DNA of 64,000 bases from Thermoanaerobaculia bacterium (GTDB taxonomy: Bacteria > Acidobacteriota > Thermoanaerobaculia > Multivoradales > UBA5704): assembly GCA_035490435.1 (NCBI GenBank), contig DATHEF010000004.1, forward strand, positions 216,044 to 280,043, in the 5' to 3' direction. The translations under genes were made by a program, and so were the position numbers. Shown here piece after piece: positions 3,324 through 63,219 of the stretch (within the stretch, counting starts at the first letter, position 1; each line of letters starts with the position of its first letter). Under the pieces are notes generated by a model. That model was given only the letters and a program-made list of their open reading frames with translations, had not been told where the DNA came from and made no database searches.

Positions 3324-5057
<1,734 letters not shown>

Positions 5058-5439: not shown

Positions 5440-5893
5440 TCCGGATCGCGCTTTCCGCCTTCCGTGTTTCCGCATGGGCCCACGGGCTCTGCGGATGCGC
5501 CTCACCGATCTCCGAGTCCGCTTACCCGATCGCCGTGTCTTCCCGCCCGATCTCCACGTGCGCCCACCGGAACTGCGGTCGCGCCCCCTGGATCTCTGTG
5601 TGCGCCCTCTGGTTCCGCGATTGCGCCGGCTGGTTCTCTGTGTGTGCCCCCTGGAACTGCGGTCGCGCGCAAGGGAAGGCCGTGCCGGCGTGACGACGGG
5701 CTGACTCCGCTTTCCAGAGGGCTGGTGCGTGGAAGCAGAGGGCGCCAACACGAGACCAGAGGGCGCGGTCTGCCCTCAGAAGCTATGGGACGCGGCTCCA
5801 GAGGGCGCAATCGCAGCTCCAGAGGGCACACACGGAAAAACCAGAGGGCACGGTCCACCGAGCAGAGGGCGCGACCGCATCAGCAGAGGGCGC
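5440..5893. repeat. complex intergenic repeat cluster: inverted arrays of short GCGCCCTCTGG / CCAGAGGGCGC motifs
   Basis: Left arm carries gcgccccctgg, gcgccctctgg and gtgccccctgg units. The right arm carries six cagagggcgc/cagagggcac units spaced 20-30 bp. The arms are imperfect reverse complements of each other over about 200 bp. Confidence 0.8.
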
Positions 5894-5897
5894 TACG

Positions 5898-6773
5898 CTA
5901 GCGTCCTTCGATCGGTACCGCGAACTGGTCGAGCTGAGTCAGATCGCGCCGGTAGGCGGTGACCGCCACGCGGTCCGGATAGACGTCGACGACGCAGAAG
6001 TGGTTCACCTTCTCGAAGACGTCGCCAGGAACCCCGAGCTCGGGGTGCTCGCCGTCGTAGAGCGGGGCGCCGCCGCCGCCGGTGACGACGTAGGTGATGC
6101 CGTCCCTCAGGGTGCGGTAGTAGATGTGGTCGTGCCCCTCGAAGACCAGGCGGACCCCGTATTTCCTGAACAGCGGATGGAGGATCGCCTGCAAGGCCAG
6201 GATTCCGCTCTCGTCGGCGTGGGGTCCGGTCGAGAAGATCGCCTTGTGGAAGAAGGGGACGATGAGCTTCCCCTCGGACCGCGCCCTGGCGAGGTCGGCT
6301 TCGAGCCAGCGCCCCTCCTCGCTCGCCGGGTCGAGCGGCTGCTGGGTGTCGACGGCGATGAAGTGGAGGTTCCCCTTCTCGAAGGAGTAGTAGAGCTTGT
6401 TGCCGGAGAGGAACGGCTGGGTCACCCGCTGCTCGTAGTAGCCGTGGGTGCCCATGTCGTGGTTGCCGCGGGCCGGGTAGTAGGGGATCTGCCGCCGCAT
6501 GTCGCCGGTGATCTCGTCGAAGATCCGCCATTCGTCCGCGGCGTCGCCATGGCGAACGAGGTCGCCGGTCTGCAGGACCAGCGCCGGCTGGAAGCTCATC
6601 ACTCCCTTGACGATCTCGCGGTGGATGTCGTGGTTGTCGCGGGTGTCGCCATACGCGGCGAAGCGGAGCAGGGCTCTCGCCGGCGCCGGCAAGGGGTTCT
6701 GAGCCTGGGGCGTCTGGGAGCAGGCGGAGACCAGCAGGGCGAGCAGGAAGGCGAAACAGGGGGTGGGTTTCAT
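5898..6773 (-). CDS. calcineurin-like metallophosphoesterase, secreted or lipoprotein
   Basis: MKPTPCFAFLLALLVSACSQ signal/lipobox, then GDTRDNH...GNHD...GHDH metallophosphatase motifs. Start trimmed from the 791-aa ORF-track call to the Met preceding the signal peptide. Confidence 0.8.
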   Translation of the reverse strand: MKPTPCFAFLLALLVSACSQTPQAQNPLPAPARALLRFAAYGDTRDNHDIHREIVKGVMSFQPALVLQTGDLVRHGDAADEWRIFDEITGDMRRQIPYYPARGNHDMGTHGYYEQRVTQPFLSGNKLYYSFEKGNLHFIAVDTQQPLDPASEEGRWLEADLARARSEGKLIVPFFHKAIFSTGPHADESGILALQAILHPLFRKYGVRLVFEGHDHIYYRTLRDGITYVVTGGGGAPLYDGEHPELGVPGDVFEKVNHFCVVDVYPDRVAVTAYRRDLTQLDQFAVPIEGR

Positions 6774-6845
6774 CGGAGTCTCCTTGGCGGGGTAGAATAG
6801 GGCAAAGCTTCGATCTGATCCACGCGCCCGAGGGAGGAGAATCCG

Positions 6846-8150
6846 ATGCGCCGCTCCGCCGCGTTCCGTTCCGTCGCCCTGGCGACTCTGCTGCTCTTCT
6901 CCGTCTCCTGCGTCTCGACGCGGCTGCCGCCGATCTCGAGCCAGGGCGGGGCTTTCGAGCCGCTGCACGACGAGCAGATCCTCTGGGACCAGTCCCGGGG
7001 GGAGGAGAGGAAGCTCCTCGAGGACATCCGGCTCTACAAGGATCCGGGCCTCGACGCCTATCTGGAGGAGGTGGTCGCCCGCCTCAACCCGCCCGGCATG
7101 GCCTCCAATGAGGCCGTGCGGTACCGGGTGCGAGTGATCGAGGACCCCACGCTCAACGCCTTCGCCTACCCGCACGGCTCGATCTATGTCCACACCGGGC
7201 TGCTCGCGCGTTTGGAGAGCGAGGACGAGCTGGCGACGGTGCTCGGCCATGAGATGACCCACGTCGAGAACCGCCACATGCTGCGCTATCAGCGGAGCGC
7301 CCACAACAAGGAGATCGGCCTCTCGATCGCCGCCGTCACCGCCTCGGTAATCCTCGCCGGTGTCGAGGGGGATGCCCTGAATGCCGGCGACTGGGGGAAA
7401 GCGGCGGCGATCGACCTCTTCGGCAATCTGCTCGTCGGGCTCGGGCTGGATCTCGCCTTCCAGGCGTCGGTCAACGGCTACGGCCGCGGTCTCGAGGAGG
7501 AGGCGGACCTGGGCGGCTTCACCAAGCTGGCCGCGGCGGGCTACGACCTCCAGGAGGCGCCGAAGGTCTACCAGGCGCTCCTCGACGACCAGGGGGAGCC
7601 CCACCGGGCCGAGGCGTTCTTCTTCGGCAGCCATCCGCGCCTGAGCGAGCGGATCGAGGTCACCCGGCGCTATCTGGGAGCGCACGCGGCGGTGGCGGGC
7701 GTGGTGATCGACCGCGCCGGCCGGCAGGAGGCCTTCGCCCGCCACCTCCGGCCGCTGGTGCGGGAGGACGCCCGGCTCAACATCGAGATGGGGCGGCTGA
7801 TGCTCGCCGAGGCCGAGCTCCGGAGGGTGCGGGAGTGGATGCCCGAAGACCCCGAGACCCACTTCCTCAAGGGGCGGCTGCGGCTCGCCCAGTCGGTCGC
7901 CGAGCAGAGCCCGGAGGCGCGGGCGCGGCTCCAGGGGGAGGCCGAGGACGCTTTCCGCAAGGCGATCGAGCTCGACGGCGACCGCCCGGCGCCGCACCGC
8001 GAGCTGGGGCTGCTGCTGCGCGAGCGCAAGGACTTCCGCGGCGCCTGCGTGCAGCTCCGGCGCTACGAGCAGCTCGATCCGCAGGCCGACGACGCCGGGC
8101 AGATCGAGGATTCGATCGCCGAGTTGGAGGGGTTCGGCGGCTGCGGGTAG
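6846..8150 (+). CDS. M48 family zinc metallopeptidase with C-terminal TPR-like region
   Basis: Signal peptide; HEMTH (HExxH) with downstream E; Peptidase_M48-type context (LGHEMTHVENRHM). Confidence 0.8.
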   Translation: MRRSAAFRSVALATLLLFSVSCVSTRLPPISSQGGAFEPLHDEQILWDQSRGEERKLLEDIRLYKDPGLDAYLEEVVARLNPPGMASNEAVRYRVRVIEDPTLNAFAYPHGSIYVHTGLLARLESEDELATVLGHEMTHVENRHMLRYQRSAHNKEIGLSIAAVTASVILAGVEGDALNAGDWGKAAAIDLFGNLLVGLGLDLAFQASVNGYGRGLEEEADLGGFTKLAAAGYDLQEAPKVYQALLDDQGEPHRAEAFFFGSHPRLSERIEVTRRYLGAHAAVAGVVIDRAGRQEAFARHLRPLVREDARLNIEMGRLMLAEAELRRVREWMPEDPETHFLKGRLRLAQSVAEQSPEARARLQGEAEDAFRKAIELDGDRPAPHRELGLLLRERKDFRGACVQLRRYEQLDPQADDAGQIEDSIAELEGFGGCG

Positions 8151-8196
8151 CCAGTCTGGAGTAGAGTCTCCAGGACCAACTCGTTCTGGAGGTTCC

Positions 8197-10263
8197 ATGC
8201 GCAAGCTGTTCATTTGTTTCGCGATGCTGACGGCGGCCCTCCCCGCGCTGGCGGCGGACCCGCATCCGTTCAACGTCCATGATCTGGTGACGATGCAGCG
8301 GATCTCGGACCCTCAGCCCTCGCCGCGGGGGGACCGGGTCGCCTTCGTCCTCCGCTCCACGGATCTCGACGCCAACCGGGGTCGCACCGATCTCTGGATC
8401 GTCAATGCCGACGGCGGCGGCCTCGCCCGGCTGACCACCGATCCGGCGTCGGACGACACCCCCCGCTGGGCGCCGGACGGCCAGAGCCTCTACTTCCTCT
8501 CCAGCCGCTCCAAGTCGAGCCAGGTCTGGAAGTTGCCGGTCGCTGGGGACACCGTGGGCGACCCCGTGCAGGTGACCCATCTCCCTCTCGACGTCGCGAA
8601 CCTCACCCTCTCGCCCGACGGCTCGCGGCTCGCCTTCAGTCTCGAGGTCTACGCCGACTGCCCGACGGTCGCCTGCACGAAAGAGCGGCTGGACCAGAAG
8701 GAGAAGGAGAAGTCCTCCGGCCAGCTCTTCCAGGGGGATGCCGGCTTCTTCCGCCACTGGGACGTCTGGTCCTCGGGGCTGCGCAACCATATTTTCACCC
8801 TGCCGGCCTCTGGCGAGGGCGATCCGGTCGACCTCTCGCGCGGCATGAACGCCGACGCCCCCTCGCGCCCCTTTGGCGGCTCCGAGGAGTTCACCTTCTC
8901 GCCCGACGGCCGCACGTTGGTCTTCACCGCCCGCCTCGGCGGCCGCGAGGAGCCGTGGTCGACCAACTTCGACCTCTACAGCGTGCCGGCGGACGGCTCG
9001 CAGGCGCCCCGGAACCTGACGCAGGCCAACCTCGCCTGGGACACCCAGCCGGTCTTCTCGCCGGACGGCAAGACCCTGGCCTACCTCGCAATGTCCCGCG
9101 CGGGCTTCGAGGCCGACCGCTTCCGCATCCGGCTGCGCGACCTCGCCACCGGCCGCGAGCGGGTGCTCGCGGAGGCCTGGGACCGCTCGCCGGCCGGGGT
9201 CTTCTTCTCGGCGGACGGCCGCACTCTCTATGCCTCGGCCGGTGACGTGGGGCAGACGCCGCTCTTCGCCATCGACGTCGCGACCGGCAAGGTGACCAAG
9301 CTGGTGTCCCAGGGGCACGTCCATGATCCGAAGCTCGCCGGCGACCGCATCGTCTACGGCCTCGATACCCTGATCTCGCCGGTGGAGCTGTACACGGTGG
9401 GGCGCGACGGCACGGGGGTGTCCCAGCTCACCCACGTCAACCAGGAGGCGCTCGCCGCCATCCGCATGGGGGAGCCGGAGCAGTTCTCCTTCAAGGGGGC
9501 CAACGGCGATACGGTCTGGGGGTGGGTGACCAAGCCGGTCGGCTTCCAGGCGGGCAGGAAGTACCCGCTGGCCTTCCTCATCCACGGCGGCCCCCAGGGA
9601 TCGTTCAGCAACGAGTTCCACTACCGCTGGAACCCGCAGCCCTACGCGGGGGCGGGGTACGCGGTGATCACCATCGACTTCCACGGCTCGACCGGCTACG
9701 GCCAGGCGTTCACCGACGCCATCACCCGGGACTGGGGGGGCAAGCCGCTGGTCGACCTTCAGAAGGGGCTCGCCGCCGCCCTCCAGCGCTACCCCTGGAT
9801 CGACGGCACGCGGGCGTGCGCTCTCGGCGCCTCCTACGGCGGCTTCATGATCAACTGGATCCAGGGCAACTGGCCCAACGCCTTCAAGTGCCTGGTCGAC
9901 CATGACGGCACCTTCGATCAGCGGATGATGTATTACGGCACCGAGGAGCTCTGGTTCCCGGAGTGGGAGATGGGCGGCACCTACTGGCAGCACCCGCAGC
10001 TCTACGAGAAGAACAACCCGGTGAATTTCGTCGACCGCTGGAAGACCCCGATGCTGGTCGTCCACAGCGCCCTCGACTACCGCATCCCGGTCACCCAGGG
10101 GATCGCCGCCTTCAACGTCCTCCAGCGCAAGGGGATCGCCAGCCAGTTCCTCTACTTTCCCGACGAGAACCACTGGATCCTCAAGCCGGCCAACAGCATC
10201 CTCTGGCACGACACCGTGCTGACCTGGCTCGACCGCTGGCTGGGGCCCGGGGGAAGCAAGTAA
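8197..10263 (+). CDS. S9 family serine peptidase (prolyl oligopeptidase / acylaminoacyl-peptidase-like) with N-terminal TolB-like beta-propeller
   Basis: Signal peptide MRKLFICFAMLTAALPALA; propeller repeats (SPDG...); GASYGGFM nucleophile elbow (GxSxGG); D and H of the catalytic triad lie in the C-terminal alpha/beta hydrolase fold. Confidence 0.85.
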   Translation: MRKLFICFAMLTAALPALAADPHPFNVHDLVTMQRISDPQPSPRGDRVAFVLRSTDLDANRGRTDLWIVNADGGGLARLTTDPASDDTPRWAPDGQSLYFLSSRSKSSQVWKLPVAGDTVGDPVQVTHLPLDVANLTLSPDGSRLAFSLEVYADCPTVACTKERLDQKEKEKSSGQLFQGDAGFFRHWDVWSSGLRNHIFTLPASGEGDPVDLSRGMNADAPSRPFGGSEEFTFSPDGRTLVFTARLGGREEPWSTNFDLYSVPADGSQAPRNLTQANLAWDTQPVFSPDGKTLAYLAMSRAGFEADRFRIRLRDLATGRERVLAEAWDRSPAGVFFSADGRTLYASAGDVGQTPLFAIDVATGKVTKLVSQGHVHDPKLAGDRIVYGLDTLISPVELYTVGRDGTGVSQLTHVNQEALAAIRMGEPEQFSFKGANGDTVWGWVTKPVGFQAGRKYPLAFLIHGGPQGSFSNEFHYRWNPQPYAGAGYAVITIDFHGSTGYGQAFTDAITRDWGGKPLVDLQKGLAAALQRYPWIDGTRACALGASYGGFMINWIQGNWPNAFKCLVDHDGTFDQRMMYYGTEELWFPEWEMGGTYWQHPQLYEKNNPVNFVDRWKTPMLVVHSALDYRIPVTQGIAAFNVLQRKGIASQFLYFPDENHWILKPANSILWHDTVLTWLDRWLGPGGSK

Positions 10264-35186: not shown

Positions 35187-35271
35187 AAGCCTTCGCGATA
35201 GGACCGTTCATGCCAGCGCCTGAACCGAGAGCGCAGCCGATATTATTCTCTGTTCGGGAGATAATACGGAC

Positions 35272-35511
35272 ATGAAGACCCTGTCCCTGAGACTTCCGGA
35301 CGCCTTGGATGACCAGCTTGAATCGCTGGCTGGCAGACTGCGGACCACCAAGACGGCGGTCATTCGTGAAGCGATATCCGCCTATCTCAACGAGAACAGC
35401 CCTCCGGCCCGAGAGTCCTTTGCGTCGCTGGCTCAAGATCTCTCCGGATGGATTGAGGGCCCCGAGGATCTCTCGGTGAATCCAGACTATCTCGCTGGCT
35501 ACGGCAAGTGA
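35272..35511 (+). CDS. ribbon-helix-helix (CopG/VapB-like) antitoxin
   Basis: 79 aa, MKTLSLRLPDALDDQLESLAGRLRTTKTAVIREAISAYL RHH fold. Confidence 0.7.
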   Translation: MKTLSLRLPDALDDQLESLAGRLRTTKTAVIREAISAYLNENSPPARESFASLAQDLSGWIEGPEDLSVNPDYLAGYGK

Positions 35512-35524
35512 GGAGGAAACCCTC

Positions 35525-35653
35525 ATCGCTTGCCTGGTGCGAATGTCAGAGTTGCACCCGGACGCGGTTCTGCTGACCCTCGATTCCGATTTCAGGATCT
35601 ACCGCAGGAATCGTCGGTCCATGATTCCGACATTGATGCCCACGATCCGCTGA
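35525..35653 (+). pseudogene. remnant 3' fragment of a PIN-domain (VapC-like) toxin gene
   Basis: Frame +1 relative to the antitoxin reads ...LHPDAVLLTLDSDFRIYRRN..., resembling a PIN C-terminus. It has no start codon and no N-terminal catalytic acidic residues. Confidence 0.35.
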
Positions 35654-35715: not shown

Positions 35716-35892
35716 TCAGCAGAGAGTCGAATTGCAGAGACAGGTATCGAAACAGGCCGTGTTGGCGCCCGACCCGCATATCCAGGGGCAGGTGTCCGAG
35801 CGCCCGCCGCCGGCCTCGCGCAGGCTGGTCTTCCCGAGAGACCGCAGGGTCTCGCGGCTGAGCTCGAGCTTCTTCGGGAGTCTCTTTTTCAT
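35716..35892 (-). CDS. small Cys-rich precursor-like peptide A (58 aa) with double-glycine-type leader
   Basis: MKKRLPKKLELSRETLRSLGKTSLREAGGG|RSDTCPWICGSGANTACFDTCLCNSTLC; SD GGAGGA 9 nt upstream of the ATG. The leader and about 40 bp of upstream sequence are duplicated at 36848..36905. Not in the ORF track. Confidence 0.7.
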   Translation of the reverse strand: MKKRLPKKLELSRETLRSLGKTSLREAGGGRSDTCPWICGSGANTACFDTCLCNSTLC

Positions 35893-35961: not shown

Positions 35962-36411
35962 ATGCCCAAAGTTTCCCACGAACAGGCCCTTGCCGAGATG
36001 GAGAGCGTGCTCGGCATGGTCCGCGCGAACGCTGACCGGTTGCCCCCACTCGCCCTTCAGGTCGCGGACAAGCTCGAGGCCATCATCGCCGAGTTCAAGG
36101 CCGCGAGGATTGAGCAGCAGGATCTGCTCGCAAAGCGGATCTTGAAGACCGAGGAGATCATGTCCCTGATTGCCCAGGGCAACCGTGCCGCGCGCGATCT
36201 GCGGGCCTTCGTCATTCTCGCATTGGGTACGCGGCACCCGTTGCTCAAGCAGTTTGGAATCGGCATCCGCGGCCGCCGCCGCCGCAAGGCCCGGAAGGTT
36301 TCCGTGCCCACCGCCAGACCCTCCGCGGCCCGCCTGGAACCCGTCGAGCCCGCCCTGGAACCGTTCGCAGGAAGTCCGGACGATCTCCAGGCCGCCGCCG
36401 AAGGCGCGTAG
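35962..36411 (+). CDS. hypothetical helical protein (149 aa)
   Basis: RBS aaggagag; protein-like composition; lies between the two leader-peptide genes and directly upstream of the 21-bp tandem repeat block. Confidence 0.45.
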   Translation: MPKVSHEQALAEMESVLGMVRANADRLPPLALQVADKLEAIIAEFKAARIEQQDLLAKRILKTEEIMSLIAQGNRAARDLRAFVILALGTRHPLLKQFGIGIRGRRRRKARKVSVPTARPSAARLEPVEPALEPFAGSPDDLQAAAEGA

Positions 36412-36530
36412 AACGCGCCGGAGCCTCTCCGGGATGTCATGGAACCCGTCCGGCCCTGCTCGTAACGTTTTGAGCGCTGCCGACCCGAAAGGGGGGATGG
36501 CCGCCGAAATAGGGCAGCCGCCGGAGAGAA

Positions 36531-36762
36531 TGGGGGAGGCGTCCGGAGACTTGGGGGAATCGATTTTCGGAATTGGGGAACCGCCTCCGCGAGTTGGGGA
36601 AGCGGTCTCGCCAATGGGGGAGACGCCCGGAGCCTCAGGGGAAAGGGCCGCCCGAATCGGGGAGGCGTCTCCGCGCTGCGGGGAACCGTCCCGCGACTCC
36701 GGGGAGACGGCGAAACGAAAAGGGCGATCGTCTCCGTGCCTGGGGGAACCGTTCCCGGAAGA
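36531..36762. repeat. tandem array of about 10 x 21-22 bp direct repeats (consensus TGGGGGArnCG..CTCCG...)
   Basis: Units start at about 36531, 36552, 36574, 36595, 36615, 36638, 36659, 36680, 36701 and 36741. The 21-bp period equals two helical turns and seven codons. Confidence 0.8.
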
Positions 36763-36847
36763 CCCATGAGAAGCCGGTCAGCCGTCTACTCGCACGCCGC
36801 AGGGTCTCGCGGCTGAGGTCGAGCTTCCTCGGGAGTCTCTTCTTCAT
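36635..36847 (-). CDS. leader-peptide paralog B (70 aa): conserved MKKRLPRKLDLSRETLR leader fused to an Arg/Pro-rich heptad-repeat tail
   Basis: The leader DNA and upstream promoter/RBS are nearly identical to peptide A. The sequence diverges after ETLR and the 3' part is encoded by the tandem repeats (RFPQARR RSPFSFR RLPGVAG RFPAARR RLPDSGG). Confidence 0.5.
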   Translation of the reverse strand: MKKRLPRKLDLSRETLRRASRRLTGFSWVFRERFPQARRRSPFSFRRLPGVAGRFPAARRRLPDSGGPFP

Positions 36848-36907
36848 GGGGTGCTCCTCCTTTGCCCTAACTCTACACCGGACCGGACTCCAGAGCTGAG
36901 CCTTGGG

Positions 36908-37309
36908 CTAGGCGGGGACGGTGACGACTTCCAGTCCATCAATCGACTGGAAGTGTCTGGCGTTGTGGGTTACCAGAGGAAGGTGGTGTCGGACCGCGGT
37001 CGCAGCGATCCAAGCGTCTGCCAGGGAGATCGGGCGTCCCCTTCGCGACATGATTCGGGCCCACTCCCAACTCATCGCGTCATCGTAGGGGAGCACGGCG
37101 TAATTTCTGAGATGCTCCCGGAGCGATTGGACCCGATGTTCTCCCCAATTGCGGGCGAAAGGCCAGCGGTACAGCTCGGCGACTGACATGAATGAGAGGC
37201 ATAGAAGCCTTCCCTTGAGGTGCTCCCAGTAGTGCGGAGCCAGGGAATGCCCCTTCAGGAGGTAGGAAACTACGGATGTATCGACGACGAGACCTTCCAC
37301 CCTCCTCAA
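36908..37309 (-). CDS. vapC: PIN-domain toxin (VapC family)
   Basis: VVDTSVVSYLL N-terminus (first catalytic Asp), ...LPLVTHNARHFQ C-terminus; 4-bp overlap with the upstream antitoxin gene. Confidence 0.75.
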   Translation of the reverse strand: MRRVEGLVVDTSVVSYLLKGHSLAPHYWEHLKGRLLCLSFMSVAELYRWPFARNWGEHRVQSLREHLRNYAVLPYDDAMSWEWARIMSRRGRPISLADAWIAATAVRHHLPLVTHNARHFQSIDGLEVVTVPA

Positions 37310-37512
37310 TCCCGCTCCTGCCGCCAGCGAACGAGTTCCTCCTCGAATCCATCCTGAAGCTCTTCCGTGGGCCAGCCCCCGACGACCTCCTCAAGACGCT
37401 CGACCGGGCGAACGTTCTGCATCTTGGCCAGCTCCTCCAGAGTGGGGCCGGACCAGAACTCACCCGGGATTACGCCACGGCCTTTCGGGTCTTTCCTATC
37501 GTGGACGGCCAT
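37306..37512 (-). CDS. type II antitoxin partner of VapC (68 aa)
   Basis: Small acidic protein translationally coupled to the PIN toxin. Confidence 0.6.
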   Translation of the reverse strand: MAVHDRKDPKGRGVIPGEFWSGPTLEELAKMQNVRPVERLEEVVGGWPTEELQDGFEEELVRWRQERD

Positions 37513-37552
37513 CGTTTACCTCCATGGCAAGTGTAGCAGGCTGTTGGCCGAC

Positions 37553-39081
37553 TACTAGGAGCCTGCGCGCCAGGAATCCTGAGGCGAGATGTCCCCCTGC
37601 TGGGCGAGCGATCGCTGATTTCTCTAGGATGCTCTCCGTTCGAAAGAGCAGGGGGCCGAGCGGTTGGAGGAGAGCAAGTCCCGGGCGAGCTTGTCTTGGC
37701 CGGGCTTTCTCTTCTCACATCGCTTGGAGTAGCGGCCTCATCTGGCGTAAGTTCAGCGCAAGACAGACCAACGTCCATTCTCCGGACACCTTCGTCAGCC
37801 CTCTCAGGCTGAACTGCCGGAAGCCGAGCACCGACTTGATCCAACCGTTGACCGGCTCCACGATGCTCTTGCGCTTGGAGTAGCGTTTGCGCCCCTCTTC
37901 AGTTTCCAGCTTCTGCCTCATTCTTTGTGTCGCTGGGTGCCTGTCTTCGTTTGTCACCTTCGCCTTCTTGCCTTCTCGCCCCAGGGCCACATAAGCGTCG
38001 ATCCGAGAGGCCTCCAACTTCTGGAGGTTCTCCTCCGAGCGATACCCTGCATCAGCCAACACCGCCTGCGGAAACTTGCCGACGTTGGTGTGAGTCTCTT
38101 CCAACACCGGCAGCAGTTCATCATGGTCAGCACCACTCTGCGTGATCTTGGCTGCGAGGATCAGCCGCGACTCACTTTCCACCGCCAGTTGACCGTTGTA
38201 GCACTGCTCGAAGCCGGACGACGTCTTCATGATCCGGCTTTCTGGGTCCGTGAAGTTGTCCTGCTTTTTTTCCGGCGGCTCGCCGAAATCTCGCTTCGTC
38301 TTGCCCTCCTCGGCACAGGCCGGAACCGCTTTACGACCGGCGGCCTGATCCTCCGCGGCTTGGCGCGACCGCAGACGCTCAATCGCTTCCTGAATCTTGC
38401 CCAGACGCTGCTCGCGACGCTTTAGCTCCTCAGGTATCTCATCACCCGTGTTGTCCGGCCCGTACTGAGCATCCTCCTGCGCGTCCACACGCGCCGCTCG
38501 CGACGTCAACTCAACGATGTCCGCTTTCAGACGATCTTTCTCTTGCTTCATCCGCCCATAGCTCATCGCCTTGCGCTTGCTCGCCGACGCCTTCACTTTC
38601 GTACCATCCACCGCCACCGTCCCCATCCGGAGCAACCCCGCCTCCCGCGCCACCTCGATCACCTGCACAAACAGACCTTGGAAAGACAACAGGTGGCGCT
38701 GGCGAAACTCTGCGATCGTCCGGTGGGCCGGAAAGTTCTCCCCGGCCAACACCCGAAACGCCACGTCCTCCTGCAACTTCTTGGCGATTTTGCGAGAGGA
38801 AAAGACACCCGTCGCATAGCCATAGAGCAGCAGCTTGACCATCATCCGCGGATCGTACGGACTGTTGCGACGGCCATCTCCCTCGTAAGGCTCGTAGAAG
38901 GCCTTCAGATCCAGAGCATCGACCGTGTCCGACAGGAAGTACGCCAGGTGGCCCTCCGCAAGCCAATCCCGCGGCGACGGCGGAAGAAGAAGAGACTGTT
39001 CCGGAACGTAGCGACGAAAGGTCGTTGGCATACGGCTATTTTACCGCATGCCAACGATTCCTGCCGCGCAGGCTCCTAGTA
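37553..39081. mobile_element. IS1182-family (IS5-like) insertion sequence, about 1.5 kb, with 26-bp terminal inverted repeats
   Basis: Left end tactaggagcctgcgcgccaggaatc (37553..37578); right end gattcctgccgcgcaggctcctagta (39056..39081). Reverse complement matches 25 of 26 positions. A single transposase gene lies inside. Confidence 0.75.
37715..39031 (-). CDS. IS1182/IS5-family DDE transposase
   Basis: N-terminal LLLPPSPRDWLAEGHLAYFLSDTVDALDL (DUF772/InsH N-terminal motif); DDE catalytic domain in the C-terminal half. Confidence 0.8.
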   Translation of the reverse strand: MPTTFRRYVPEQSLLLPPSPRDWLAEGHLAYFLSDTVDALDLKAFYEPYEGDGRRNSPYDPRMMVKLLLYGYATGVFSSRKIAKKLQEDVAFRVLAGENFPAHRTIAEFRQRHLLSFQGLFVQVIEVAREAGLLRMGTVAVDGTKVKASASKRKAMSYGRMKQEKDRLKADIVELTSRAARVDAQEDAQYGPDNTGDEIPEELKRREQRLGKIQEAIERLRSRQAAEDQAAGRKAVPACAEEGKTKRDFGEPPEKKQDNFTDPESRIMKTSSGFEQCYNGQLAVESESRLILAAKITQSGADHDELLPVLEETHTNVGKFPQAVLADAGYRSEENLQKLEASRIDAYVALGREGKKAKVTNEDRHPATQRMRQKLETEEGRKRYSKRKSIVEPVNGWIKSVLGFRQFSLRGLTKVSGEWTLVCLALNLRQMRPLLQAM

Positions 39082-41117
39082 CAGGACTACGGTGCGGTCC
39101 GACCGGAACCGCTCGCCTGGTTTGCCCGTCTGGCTGAGGAACAGGCGGTTGATCTCGACAGCCTTGCCTTCCTGCTGGAACAGATCCCGGAGAGCAGTCT
39201 GGTTTTTCGAGAGCTAGCGGCAACTCTTTCGGCTCGCGCCGTGGAACTCGCGCGTAATCAAGATGCGCTCGAAACTCTGGCTCTGCTTCTCAACAACTTG
39301 TCCGTCCGCCTAAGCGATCTCGGCCGTCAAGAGGAGGGCCTGGAAGCCTGTGAGGAGGCGGTCAAGCTGTATCGTCAGCTCGTCTCCTCGCGCCCCGATG
39401 CCTTCTGCCCCGATCTGGCGATGTCGCTCAACAACTTGTCCATCGACCTGACAGATCTCGGCCGTTGGGAGGAGGCTTTGGCGGCTTGTGAGGAGGCGAT
39501 CAAGCTGTACCGCCATCTCGCTACCTCGCGCCCCGCCCTCCGCCCCGATCTGGCGATGCGCTCAACAACCTGTCCGGCCGCCTGAGCAATTTCGGCCGAC
39601 GGGAGGAGGCTCTGGCGGCCTGCGAAGAGGCGGTAGAGCTGTACCGCCAGCTCGGCGCTTCACGTCCCGACGCCTTTCGACCCGATTTGGCGACGTCGCT
39701 CAACAACCTGTCCAACGACTTGGGCTATCTCGGCCGTCGGGAGGAGGCTCTGGCGGCCTCTGAGGAAGCAGTCAAGCTGTACCGTCATCTCGCCACCTCG
39801 CGCCCCGACGCCTTCCGTTCCAATCTGGCTAGTGCGCTTAATAACCTGTCCGGCCACTTGAGCGATCTCGACCGTCGGGAGGAGGCTTTAGCGGCCTGTG
39901 AGGAGGCGGTAGAGCTGTACCGCCAGCTCGGCGCTTCACGTCCCGACGCCTTCCGATCCGATCTGGCGATGTCACTCAACAACCTGTCTGTCCGCTTGAG
40001 CGATCTCGACCGTTGGGAGGAGGCCTTGGTGGCTTGCGAGGAGGCAGTAGAGCTGTACCGCCATCTCGCTGCCTCGCGCCCCGACACCTTCCGGCCGGAT
40101 CTGACGATGTCGCTCAATAATCTGTTCGGCCGCTTAAGCAATCTCGGCCGTCAGGAGAAAGCTTTGGTGGCCTGCGAGGAGGCGGTAGAGCTATACCGCC
40201 AGCTCGCCACCTCGCGTCCAGACGTCTTCCGACCCTCTCTAGCGATGTCGCTCAACAACATGTCCGTCGGCCTGAGCGATGTCGGACGTCGGGAGGAGGC
40301 TCTGGCGGCCTGCAAGGAAGCGGTAGAGATCGGGCGCCATCTCGCCGTCTCGCGCCCCGACGTCTCCCGACCCGATCTGGCGATGTCGCTCAGCAACCTG
40401 TCCAACCGCCTGAGTGATGTCGGGCGTCGGGAAGAGGCTCTAGTGGCCTGCGAGGAGGCGGTAGAGATCCGGCGTCATCTCGCCGGCTCGCGCTCCCACG
40501 TCTTCCGACCCGATCTGGCGACGTCGCTCAGCAACCTGTCCATCCGCCTGAGCGATGTCGGGCGTCGGGAAGAGGCTCTGGTGGCCTGCGAGGAGGCGGT
40601 AGAGATCCGGCGTCATCTCGCTGCCGCACGCCCCGACGTCTTCCGATCCCCTCTGGCGGGTGCACTCAACAACCTGTTCGGCCGCCTGAGCGATGTCGGG
40701 CGTCGGGAGGAGGCTCTGGCCACCTGCGAGGAGGCGGTAAAGCTGTACCGCCATCTCGCCACCTCGCGCCCCGACGTCTTCCGGCCCGATCTGGCGATGT
40801 CGCTCAACAACCTGTCGGTCGGCCTGAGCGATCTCGGCCGGAAAGAGGAGGCCCTGGAGGCCTGCGAGAAGGCGGTAGAGATCCGGCGTCAGCTCGCCGC
40901 TGCACGCCCCGACGCCTTCCGACCCGATCTGGCGATGTCGCTTAACAACCTGTCTGTCTGCCTGAGTGCTCTCGAGCTTTGGGAGGAAGCCCTAGCGGCC
41001 TGCGAGGAGGCGGTCCGGACCCTTTCGCCGTACTTTCTCGCCTATCCCGCTGCATTTAGGGACCGGATGGCTATCTTGGCACGGGTCTACCTCCAATGCG
41101 CCGAGGAAGCAGGATAG
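39082..41117 (+). pseudogene. TPR-repeat (TPR_10/12-like) protein gene, 5'-truncated by the IS and carrying a frameshift near 39567
   Basis: About 14 tandem 42-aa repeats (RPDAFRPDLAMSLNNLSxRLSDLGRREEALAACEEAVELYRQLAxS). The upstream ORF 39025..39585 starts inside the IS right end and loses frame at ...DLAMRSTTCPAA, a 1-nt deletion relative to the repeat consensus. The repeats continue in another frame at 39687..41117. Confidence 0.65.
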
Positions 41118-61736: not shown

Positions 61737-61850
61737 GGTGGTCTCCTTGAGGGTTCGTTTCGATTCGAAGAATTTTCTAAATAGTCATACGAAGCGGAGC
61801 CACGAACCGTCACCGGAGCCGGGAGGGAGAGCGGGGGAGTCAGGACGTGT

Positions 61851-62105
61851 AGCGGGGGAGAGGGGAAAGATCTATGGAAGCCGTACAACAGCGGGGGGAG
61901 GGGTCCCCCCGCGAGGGGAGTTAAGCCCCCGCTCAGGTATACCCCTCTCCCTGGCGGGTACAGGGGCCCCCAAGCAGGGGGAGGGGTTCCCCAAGAAGGT
62001 ACAGGGGTCTCCCTGCTTGGGGAGTTAAGCCCCGCTCAGGCAGGTATACCCCCCTCCCCGGCAGGTACGGGGGTCTCCCAAGAAGGGGAGGAGTTCCCCC
62101 GCTCC
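61851..62105. repeat. about 2.5 tandem copies of an approximately 95-bp GC-rich repeat
   Basis: Recurring GGGGAGTTAAGCCCC(C)GCTCAGG..GGTATACCCC.CTCCC.GGC.GGTAC.GGGG ... CCAAG.AGGGGGAGG units directly upstream (5') of two tandem DinB-like paralogs. Confidence 0.7.
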
Positions 62106-62127
62106 GGTGGCAATCGCTCTGCGATCC

Positions 62128-62625
62128 CTACATGTTCCCTTCGTCCGCCGACGGGCCGTAGAGGGCGGGGACCGGGATGTCGTTGAGCCGCATGTAAACG
62201 GTGAGCTGGGCGCGATGGTGGATAATGTGGTTCATGACCATGGCGCGCAGCACGGCGATCCTTGGCATCGTGAAGACCACATGGTCGCCGTTGCGGAGCG
62301 TCCAGGGCTTGGACCAGTCCTCATTGCTGGCGTTCGCGATGGCCTCGCGGGCCTCGGCGCTGGTCTTGTCGAAGAGCGCCAGCAGCTTTTCGGTGGTGTT
62401 CACCTTGGGGACTTCCCCAGGCTGGGAGACGTCGAATTCCTCGGAGGCGAGGGTCATGGTGGCCCAGGAGGAGAGCCGGGCGACGTGAGTCGCCAGCTTG
62501 CCAAGGCTGAAGGACTTGGGGTGCGGCTGCCAGGTGAACTTGTCGGCGGGCATCCGCTGGAGGACTCGGCGGGTGCCCGCCATCTCCTGGTCGAATTCGG
62601 GAAGCAGGGACTGGCTCAGGTTCAT
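62128..62625 (-). CDS. DinB/YfiT-like four-helix-bundle protein (DinB_2 superfamily)
   Basis: ...MVMNHIIHHRAQLTVYMRLNDIPVPALYGPS C-terminal His-rich motif; tandem paralog of the next gene, about 60% identical. Confidence 0.7.
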   Translation of the reverse strand: MNLSQSLLPEFDQEMAGTRRVLQRMPADKFTWQPHPKSFSLGKLATHVARLSSWATMTLASEEFDVSQPGEVPKVNTTEKLLALFDKTSAEAREAIANASNEDWSKPWTLRNGDHVVFTMPRIAVLRAMVMNHIIHHRAQLTVYMRLNDIPVPALYGPSADEGNM

Positions 62626-62643
62626 GGAATCTCCTCTGAAGGT

Positions 62644-63147
62644 CTAGAAGTTGCTCTCGTCCGCCGACGGACCGTAGAGGCCGGGGACGGGGATGTCGTT
62701 GAGCCGCAGGTAGACGGTGAGCTGGGCGCGGTGATGAATGATGTGGTTCATGACGAAGCCGCGCAGCACGGCGATTTTCGGCATCGTGAAGAGCACCTGT
62801 TCGCCATTGCGGAGCGTCCAGTTCTTGAAGAACTCTTCATCGCCGGCTCCGGCCAGGGCCGCCCGGGCCTCGCCGACGCACTTGTCGAAAATATTCAGCA
62901 GGTCCTCGGTCTTCTCTACCTGGGTCGGGGCATAGGGTTTCGCGGCGAAGTCCAACTCGCTGGTGTTGAGGGTCAGGGTGGTCCAGGAGGGGAGCTCGGC
63001 GACATGGACCGCCAGACGGCTGAAGTTCATGGACTTCTCATGAGGGCCCCAGGAAAACTTGTCGGCGGGCACGCGCTCGAGGACGCGGCGGGTTCCGGCC
63101 ATCTCCTGGTCGAACTCGGGAAGAAGGGACTGGCTAATGCTCATGAG
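62644..63147 (-). CDS. DinB/YfiT-like protein, second tandem paralog
   Basis: MSISQSLLPEFDQEMAGTRRVLERVPADKF...FVMNHIIHHRAQLTVYLRLNDIPVPGLYGPS. Confidence 0.7.
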   Translation of the reverse strand, partial: LMSISQSLLPEFDQEMAGTRRVLERVPADKFSWGPHEKSMNFSRLAVHVAELPSWTTLTLNTSELDFAAKPYAPTQVEKTEDLLNIFDKCVGEARAALAGAGDEEFFKNWTLRNGEQVLFTMPKIAVLRGFVMNHIIHHRAQLTVYLRLNDIPVPGLYGPSADESNF

Positions 63148-63219
63148 GGTTTCCTCCAAAGGGTTGGTTGTTTTCGGGGATCGTAGAAGAAATCCCGTGC
63201 TGCGGCAATGGGGCGAAAG

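Follow-up and report, generated by a model that had tools for sequence, protein, structure and literature searches.

The sponge RNAs CsrB and RsmZ carry repeated GGA motifs, and the trp leader offers 11 (G/U)AG repeats to the 11-mer TRAP. ToxI, the antitoxin RNA of a type III toxin–antitoxin (TA) system, comprises 5.5 near-identical units of 36 nt and lies upstream of its toxin, a beta-rich endoRNase, with a terminator between the two. On DNA, the iterons of theta plasmids are repeats of 17–22 bp with a phasing of ~22 bp (PMC4980987), and iterons and type I/II partition centromeres alike are built from abutting direct repeats, which in the case of centromeres lie beside the gene of the binder (PMC4980987, PMC5016525). 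Here we describe an array of 21-nt direct repeats that follows the gene of a 149-amino-acid (aa) helical protein in the genome of a Thermoanaerobaculia bacterium (Acidobacteriota). The stretch analysed, hereafter the window, comprises 64,000 nt of contig DATHEF010000004.1 (assembly GCA_035490435.1, positions 216,044 to 280,043 of the forward strand), and all positions are those of the window unless another locus is named.

The array is old, keeps a short nucleotide core in strict register, and accompanies the same gene in related genomes. An array acting in cis as a phased protein-binding element, with the neighbouring protein as its putative binder, is the reading we favour, at roughly even odds. 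A literature search found nothing describing the element.

A 21-nt array in fixed register beside one gene

The 11 units of the array start at 36531+21k, and in a position-weight scan all spacings are 21 nt, never 22. GGGGA begins at 36533, 36554, 36575, 36596, 36617, 36638, 36659, 36680, 36701 and 36743; the tenth unit (36722) is degenerate and reads GGGCGA. The consensus of 75 units from seven related loci is T-N-GGGG-A-R-N-CG-N-C-Y (positions 0–13) followed by seven variable bases, and the plus strand of the array is 42% G and 27% C. Autocorrelation has its maxima at lags of 21, 42 and 63 (0.49, 0.51 and 0.58, respectively), and the nine successive GGGGA at 21-nt spacing compare with at most two in 5000 shuffles of 36401–36900. 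No other chain of at least six GGG at this spacing occurs on either strand of the window. Tandem Repeats Finder (TRF) at default stringency called only part of the array (36658–36706), because its units are only ~50% alike. An initial annotation, made from the sequence by a model, had placed ten tandem units of 21–22 bp at this position; autocorrelation, the shuffle test and the position-weight scan agree that the array is real, while its count and period are corrected to 11 units plus a degenerate twelfth, and to exactly 21 nt. This twelfth unit (unit 0) precedes unit 1, and the same scan found its counterpart in loci L008, L013, L015, L009 and L011.

That annotation had also asked for assembly collapse or expansion to be checked. 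Seven independent assemblies (from ENA, JGI and Logan) carry the identical array, which is therefore no assembly artefact. Its view that the repeats are no CRISPR array holds as well: the units abut, each with a conserved core of ~12 nt and a variable part of ~9 nt that are both orthologous between genomes, and unique spacers of similar length are lacking, so this candidate was rejected. No canonical G-quadruplex (four tracts of at least three G, loops of up to 12 nt) is present in 36401–36900, the loops of the array being 16–17 nt, and no dispersed regulon of the core motif was found: outside the array the motif matches three times, where 3.2 matches are expected for the window as a whole. 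When three phased GGGGANNCG units were used as a pattern on genome contigs, at least 119 unrelated high-GC stretches were matched, and among the matches listed none encodes a homologue.

The mode of conservation is that of a non-coding sequence. In the close-relative contigs compared, array identity to the window is 0.94 (L008), 0.93 (L015), 0.90 (L013), 0.90 (L009), 0.87 (L011) and 0.68 (L012); for the helical part of the gene the values, in the same order, are 0.94, 0.85, 0.87, 0.74, 0.74 and 0.75. Between the window and L009, differences fall at 3/100 core and 18/110 non-core positions of the array, against 39/110 third codon positions of the gene; for L012 the counts are 14/110, 58/120 and 34/110. 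The p-distance is thus 0.03–0.13 in the core and 0.16–0.48 outside it, making the core ~4–10 times more conserved, and by these counts the positions between cores seem to drift at a roughly neutral rate while 10–12 nt are held. The register is fixed: across 11 units the window and L012 differ by 72 substitutions and not a single insertion or deletion, whereas the neighbouring gene–array spacer differs by ~33 nt. The sole length change in the clade is that of one whole 21-nt unit, in L009/L011.

The array lies on the sense strand of the gene in all ten distinct homologous loci examined that encode an arginine-rich form of the protein. It begins 87–120 nt past the gene's stop codon in the window, L008, L015, L009, L011 and L012, and the TAG that ends the gene is conserved in six loci. 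In L013/L014 a deletion of 154 nt has removed the tail of the protein and part of the spacer, fusing gene and array. This fusion (L013 80–733 and L014 67–720; P0004) is in frame with a glycine–glutamate (GE) heptad reading of the array and gives a product of 217 aa; it occurs in two independent metagenome assemblies and mimics the long architecture of the distant homologues. In those distant loci (L137, L138, L139/L140 and L142), whose proteins are 37–45% identical, a homologous 21-nt array with cores of the form TTGGGG(G/A)RAACGCC occupies the 3′ part of the open reading frame (ORF). The ORF of L139 ends inside the array, with three good units beyond its stop. The far-group homologue L141, in which the basic patch is weak, has no array.

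Positions of the array, the adjoining gene and neighbouring features in the window
Feature	Coordinates	Strand	Description
Array	36531..36761	+	11 head-to-tail units of 21 nt each; unit-for-unit orthologous in six other loci
Degenerate unit 0	36510..36530	+	TAGGGCAGCCGCCGGAGAGAA; position-weight score 9.6; exactly -21 nt from unit 1
Gene–array spacer	36412..36509	+	inverted repeat CCGGAG-CCT-CTCCGG (36422-36436); conserved ACGTTTTGAGCG block
149-aa protein gene	35962..36411	+	coiled-coil/helical hairpin, basic patch, disordered tail
Peptide B ORF	36635..36847	-	pseudogene remnant (70 aa), from alignment with the intact L008, L013 and L015 genes
Peptide A	35716..35892	-	intact, 58 aa; double-glycine-type leader and 6-Cys core; divergent from the 149-aa gene
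PIN toxin remnant	35528..35650	+	residues 100–140 left; 93% identical to the intact 140-aa PIN of L008

Reading frames across the array

The ORFs named in the initial annotation are all present, namely the 70-aa peptide B ORF, 36170–36769 on the plus strand and 36057–36767 on the minus strand. In the window clade, however, none of the frames combines being open with selection on the encoded amino acids. TAG (36409–36411) and then TAA (36463–36465) close the frame that continues from the 149-aa ORF; across the array this frame has a ratio of non-synonymous to synonymous differences (pN/pS) of 1.1–2.6, and the conserved bases fall on its wobble positions. For the GE frame pN/pS is ~1. Only a W-G-x-R-P-x-x plus frame and its antisense partner have low values (0.24–0.45), and these are confounded by the N-CG-N-CY-N shape of the motif itself.

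It is quite improbable, on balance, that part of the array is translated in the window clade, be it as a 79-codon GE-heptad ORF from ATG (36530) to TGA (36769), in the W-G-x-R-P-x-x frame, or by recoding from upstream. The GE-heptad ORF does have its ATG exactly at unit 1 and its TGA two codons past unit 11 in the window, L008 and L013, with GGAGAGA just upstream of the ATG. This GE-x5 frame, listed as open in the initial annotation, exists, with its ATG at 36530 and not 36531, but is not conserved as an ORF. Premature in-frame stops interrupt it in L015, L009, L011 and L012, where the units past the stops are equally conserved; a mere 3 nt separate the Shine–Dalgarno-like element from the ATG, and L009 and L011 lack this element; and a frameshift out of the gene is excluded, the frame being shut in the gene–array spacer of L008, L015, L009 and L011. 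The W-G-x-R-P-x-x frame is open over units 1–10 in 7/7 loci, and unit positions 8, 11 and 14 act like wobble positions; against this, it lacks any start codon (ATG, GTG or TTG) ahead of unit 3, and in the window subclade it is preceded by stops at 36471 and 36510 (TAG).

The distant clade, in which the array lies within the ORF, is informative in this respect. Between L137 and L142 pN/pS is 0.81 in the array, with 20/24/23 differences at the three codon positions, compared to 0.39 and 8/13/20 in the N-terminal domain. Within the in-ORF array valine is encoded by GTT in 5/6 cases (background 6%) and glycine by GGA or GGG in 14/19 (background 31%), and third-position A+T is 39% vs 13%. This aberrant codon usage argues that the TTGGGGGA string is kept at the nucleotide level. 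Even a translated array, to judge from these codons, is keeping a nucleotide string and not a peptide.

These data also bear on whether the array is a relic, the former heptad-repeat C-terminal tail (Phi-G-G/E-x4 in distant homologues) that was cut off by a stop codon and no longer has a function. The distant homologues of 210–250 aa do cross the homologous array in the frame of the 149-aa ORF, ending in ...AAIRAA/SLAA and a stop; in L009, L011 and L012 a single TAG parts the gene from a frame that is open across the whole array, and the deletion in L013/L014 rejoins the two. A relic would be expected to decay uniformly and with insertions and deletions, whereas here the core is far better conserved than its surroundings, the register is perfect over 11–13 units in seven loci, and identity to L009 is higher in the array than in the gene (0.90 vs 0.74). 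Where the array is translated, its amino acids are under no constraint, and rare codons maintain the nucleotide motif nonetheless. We therefore regard the relic as improbable.

The initial annotation had further described the repeats as the 3′ half of a leader peptide, peptide B, and listed as one reading a genuine repeat-core peptide, made by the ribosome, in which leader B is fused to R(F/L/S)Pxx(R/G)(R/G) heptads. The window does contain a 70-codon ORF that opens with a genuine leader start. Only 36797–36847 (17 leader codons) of it is homologous to a peptide gene, the remainder being an out-of-frame read-through into the antisense of the array that ends at TGA 36635. Loci L008, L013/L014 and L015 hold an intact peptide of 60 aa at this position (MKKRLPRKLELSRETLRSLAKTGLREVAGG followed by RSDTCIMMCGSDANTVCFATCACTSPIQCE), with a double-glycine-type leader and a six-cysteine core resembling that of peptide A, and its stop codon lies ~20 nt from the last array unit, before the array is reached. 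Relative to these three genes the window has lost 121 nt (3n+1), with a junction at ~36795/36796; codons 19–58 are gone and the stop of the peptide is bypassed, and it is because of this frameshifting deletion that the remnant ORF reads into the array antisense. The peptide B frame meets a stop inside the array in 5/7 related loci. In addition, seven array-bearing loci (L009, L011, L012, L137, L138, L139 and L142) have no leader-type peptide at all; its absence from L009, L011 and L012 indicates that the partner of the array is the 149-aa gene rather than the peptides. By this alignment the 'repeat-core' peptide B is a deletion artefact, and a repeat-core peptide can be given practically no credence.

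A second reading, which took peptide B for a degenerate copy of peptide A that a DNA repeat had entered, was half right. The copy is decayed, and peptides A and B share homology at the DNA level in the upstream region and the first 17 codons only; the array, which is older and is present also in the seven peptide-free loci, is no invader. Peptide A itself is confined to the window subclade, is absent from L009, L011, L012 and the distant clade, and lies outside the conserved module. The peptide pair (35716–35892 and 36797–36847, both minus, in the window; 4753–4932 and 5825–6007 in L008) flanks the 149-aa gene in this subclade only, and its leader reads MKKRLP(K/R)KLELSRETLRSL...AGG, followed by the 6-Cys core. 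Close by, a PIN toxin gene beside an intact ribbon-helix-helix (RHH) antitoxin gene (35272–35511) has been shortened by its first 99 codons in the window lineage. The peptide B and PIN losses therefore amount to at least two deletions within 1.3 kb.

The adjoining gene and its product as a putative binder

The helical gene directly upstream of the array, noted in the initial annotation, is real, given its pN/pS of 0.31–0.54. In an AlphaFold model of the product (mean predicted local distance difference test score 78, and >90 over residues 11–90) helices span residues 6–22, 29–88 and 93–98. They are followed by a conserved basic patch, FGIGIRGRRRRKARK, at residues ~98–112, which includes RGRRRRKARK, and the tail after the patch is disordered. 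The protein thus combines a 60-residue helix with a basic patch, which is its most conserved segment. The family comprises 8 close and 256 distant cluster representatives, placed by their source names in Thermoanaerobaculia, Acidobacteriota. No match to the protein was found in Pfam, PHROGs, NCBIfam or PADLOC, and a sequence search of the PDB gave nothing at E below 1. The 'H-NS' label that JGI attaches to the far members P0171, P0178 and P0179 was not supported, as hhalign of the family profile against a manually entered E. coli H-NS sequence gave a probability of 0.6%. A similarity of the family to the N-terminus of a 791-aa Metallophos ORF in the window is likewise unsupported (tblastn E ~0.003, hhalign 13.5%). 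Viral contigs hold no relative of the protein; they contain 55 matches to a TTGGGG-N15 pattern, for which no relationship is claimed. A metagenome scan with the protein profile returned two loci, one of them already known.

Because the called ORF enters the array, many family members are listed with lengths of 180–270 aa (database proteins P0012–P0016, P0018, P0019, P0021, P0026, P0027, P0157–P0161 and P0163). Among them are P0019, from a nanopore-polished contig, and P0021, which has mixed frames. In some members the frame switches at G-runs, so that homopolymer errors or genuine slips of 1 nt may lie behind their C-termini.

Between gene and array, the spacer holds a loose G-tract unit near 36491 as well as the second in-frame stop already mentioned. 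Its identity to L009 is 76%, and in a seven-locus alignment the distance from the stop to unit 1 is 120 nt in five loci; the L012 spacer, ~33 nt shorter, is barely alignable. Neither a sigma-70-like promoter nor an intrinsic terminator was detected in 36412–36509.

The third reading listed in the initial annotation, an array bound by the product of this gene as putative binder, is favoured by the association of the two, by the conservation of core versus spacer positions, and by the fixed register. We read the array as a site of cooperative binding because it combines a short core, free spacers, rigid 21-nt phasing and variable copy number with constant adjacency to a small, basic, oligomer-type protein. 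The element would consist of 11–13 copies of a G-tract motif of ~12 nt (GGGGARNCGNCY) in a fixed 21-nt register, and the product of the upstream gene would be a coiled-coil oligomer with an arginine-rich patch. Such an oligomer may bind the motifs cooperatively, with one protein unit per 21 nt, and thereby build a periodic nucleoprotein filament on or beside its own gene. The complex could serve in autoregulation, nucleation or anchoring.

Double-stranded DNA is slightly favoured as the substrate, since 21 bp correspond to two helical turns and would place the sites on one face; the G-rich sense RNA, that is the 3′ region of the mRNA, appears nearly as likely, given an arginine-rich motif and an array that is constantly inside the transcript. 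That the array acts as RNA, either within the mRNA or as a separate molecule, is possible if somewhat doubtful; this estimate concerns an RNA substrate as such, and where the neighbour is the binder it overlaps with the protein-binding element favoured here. The 11 single-stranded G-tract sites (GGGGGA/GGAGG, Shine–Dalgarno-like) would then be bound by the arginine-rich protein or titrate another factor, as a multi-site protein-binding or sponge RNA. Consistent with this, the array shares the strand of the gene in every case, and in the distant clade it lies inside the transcript or ORF; the patch resembles RNA-binding arginine-rich motifs, no terminator was detected between gene and array, and a periodic protein oligomer would demand a strict register of its sites on RNA as well. 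On the other side, Rfam gave no match, whether at gathering score or with E relaxed to 10; neither strand folds more stably than its shuffles (z = +0.24 and -0.02); the hairpins of single units do not outdo shuffled ones, pairing frequencies equal the expectation from composition, and paralogous units show no covariation; and the RNAalifold covariation term is +0.61, i.e. none. A structured RNA is thus unsupported, although these negatives argue against a structured RNA and not against an unstructured, multi-site one.

Several points weigh against a protein-binding element with the neighbour as binder. Dimeric DNA binders do not usually read a motif that is asymmetric and rich in G, arginine-rich motifs are met more typically in proteins that bind RNA, and operators do not typically lie downstream. 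No recognised fold for binding DNA or RNA is present in the protein, for which fold searches led to generic coiled coils only, and no locus holds a partner nucleoside triphosphatase (NTPase), which sets the module apart from standard partition systems. For the far group, the lack of an array is known from a single locus (L141), and the comparison at the DNA level covers a minority of the 256 family members. Finally, the degenerate unit positions 8, 11 and 14 have a period of three, and in the variable tail of close orthologues differences follow a marginal period-3 pattern (3/8/12); this signal leaves a small probability for a translation-linked explanation.

A more specific form of the proposal, which we consider unlikely, is a self-marking nucleoprotein module in which the arginine-rich coiled coil polymerises on 11–13 phased G-tract sites in or after its own gene, the sites persisting as signals in the nucleic acid whether translated or not. 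On DNA or on its own mRNA, such a module could nucleate, anchor or insulate at the edge of a TA and defence hot spot in Thermoanaerobaculia chromosomes. It would be partition- or silencer-like, without an NTPase or a known binding fold.

The DNA just past the array differs in each lineage and carries TA, defence or mobile cargo (window 36908–39031, L008 6297–8047, L011 6849–10450, L137 4943–5641 and L138 4795–8421). The array thus borders on a hot spot for insertions. The cargo includes a PIN toxin with its antitoxin, an insertion sequence (IS; DDE_Tnp_1), an AAA_15/AAA_21 ATPase, a type I restriction–modification system, an RHH/PIN pair, and a Zn_ribbon_21-EVE-SNF2 set. In the distant clade a conserved block, GTGTCTTTATACG...TCGGCGTCCAC, follows ~100–150 nt past the array (L137 ~4765–4800, L138 ~4725–4765, L139 ~2950–2985, and L142; alignment columns 760–800); it is absent from the window.

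The window contains other repeats. Past the stop of the 791-aa Metallophos ORF (5898–8273, minus), the region 5500–5900 (minus) has ~8 direct copies of GCGCCCTCTG(G/C) at 21–22-nt spacing and then ~6–7 reverse-complement CCAG(A/G)GGGCGC copies at 21-nt spacing, a second, unrelated and opposed pair phased at 21 nt. Palindromes of the GGGG(T)CCCC type fill the intergenic region 61820–62100, upstream of the ORF 62107–63186 (+), where TRF gives a period of 21 nt and one of 107 nt, the latter unit being present in 1.9 copies. At 39289–41014, 12.5 tandem copies of a 138-nt (46-aa) unit lie in the ORF 39687–41117 (+), beside the IS at 37715–39031; the unit encodes TPR-like repeats (LNNLSxRLSDLGRREEAL...).

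Should the adjacent protein bind the array, it would define a new family of nucleic-acid-binding proteins, with 256 unannotated cluster representatives, together with its recognition site, and the locus would show clearly how a cis element can keep its nucleotide motif while passing into and out of a reading frame. For gene calling the array is a caution, as several database 'proteins' of 180–270 aa and the 'peptide B' of the window are read-throughs of it. The analysis also removes a false lead: there is no precursor here of a repeat-core ribosomally synthesised and post-translationally modified peptide.

Comparison with known systems

Like CsrB/RsmZ and the trp leader, the array presents ~11 short purine-rich GGA motifs on one strand, in a number that could match an oligomer. 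Unlike them, it shows no hairpin-loop presentation, no covariation and no Rfam match; compared to CsrB its spacing is rigid, and neither CsrA nor TRAP is related to the protein beside it. A sponge RNA of the CsrB/RsmZ type was accordingly rejected, with hairpins at shuffle level and a folding z-score of 0.24. With ToxI the locus shares a tandem array coupled to one small protein gene in an island rich in defence and TA genes; it differs in that its units are only ~50% alike and lie downstream, and in that the protein is all-helical. An antitoxin RNA of a type III TA system was rejected on these grounds, together with the lack of a detectable terminator and of a PADLOC match.

Among proteins that bind direct repeats cooperatively and head to tail, BldC (PMC5859096) and response regulators of the OmpR/PhoB type also read asymmetric repeats as multimers, with a variable number of repeats. 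Their arrays are found in target promoters and have 2–6 repeats, whereas the present one has 11–13 at the 3′ end of its own gene, and the window holds no dispersed copies of the motif beyond chance.

Iterons are alike in unit length, abutting arrangement and same-face phasing, and the description of the array as iteron-like in the initial annotation stands for repeat length and phase. It does not extend to a Rep gene, an AT-rich unwinding element or DnaA boxes, all of which the array region, at 68% G+C, lacks. It is very improbable that the array is the iteron origin or plasmid-type partition centromere of a mobile element. The size and phasing of the abutting 21-bp direct repeats are typical of iterons and of type I/II centromeres adjoining a binder gene, and the region is rich in TA and defence genes. 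Against this, called genes and Pfam matches reveal no Rep, ParA, ParM or TubZ in any locus; within 1.5 kb there is no DnaA box with up to one mismatch and no 40-nt stretch below 37.5% GC (the lowest value within 35–38 kb is 37.5%, at 35239); host contigs are of chromosomal size (303 kb, 527 kb and 7.05 Mb); and viral contigs contain no relatives.

A further likeness in arrangement is to the centromere arrays of plasmids, such as F sopC after sopB, R1 parC, pSK41 parC and pCXC100 parS (PMC3074162). These too are phased, head-to-tail repeats beside a small gene for the presumed binder, with a conserved core, a free spacer and a variable copy number, and here the array adjoins the small-protein gene in ten distinct loci. 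The present locus departs from them in having no ParA, ParM or TubZ, in its chromosomal context and asymmetric G-tract motif, in a neighbour predicted to be a coiled coil with a basic patch in place of an RHH or helix-turn-helix ParB-type protein, and in an array that in relatives lies inside the coding region of its own gene. The gene-plus-array module, hitherto unannotated, is best filed with gene-adjacent phased binding arrays.

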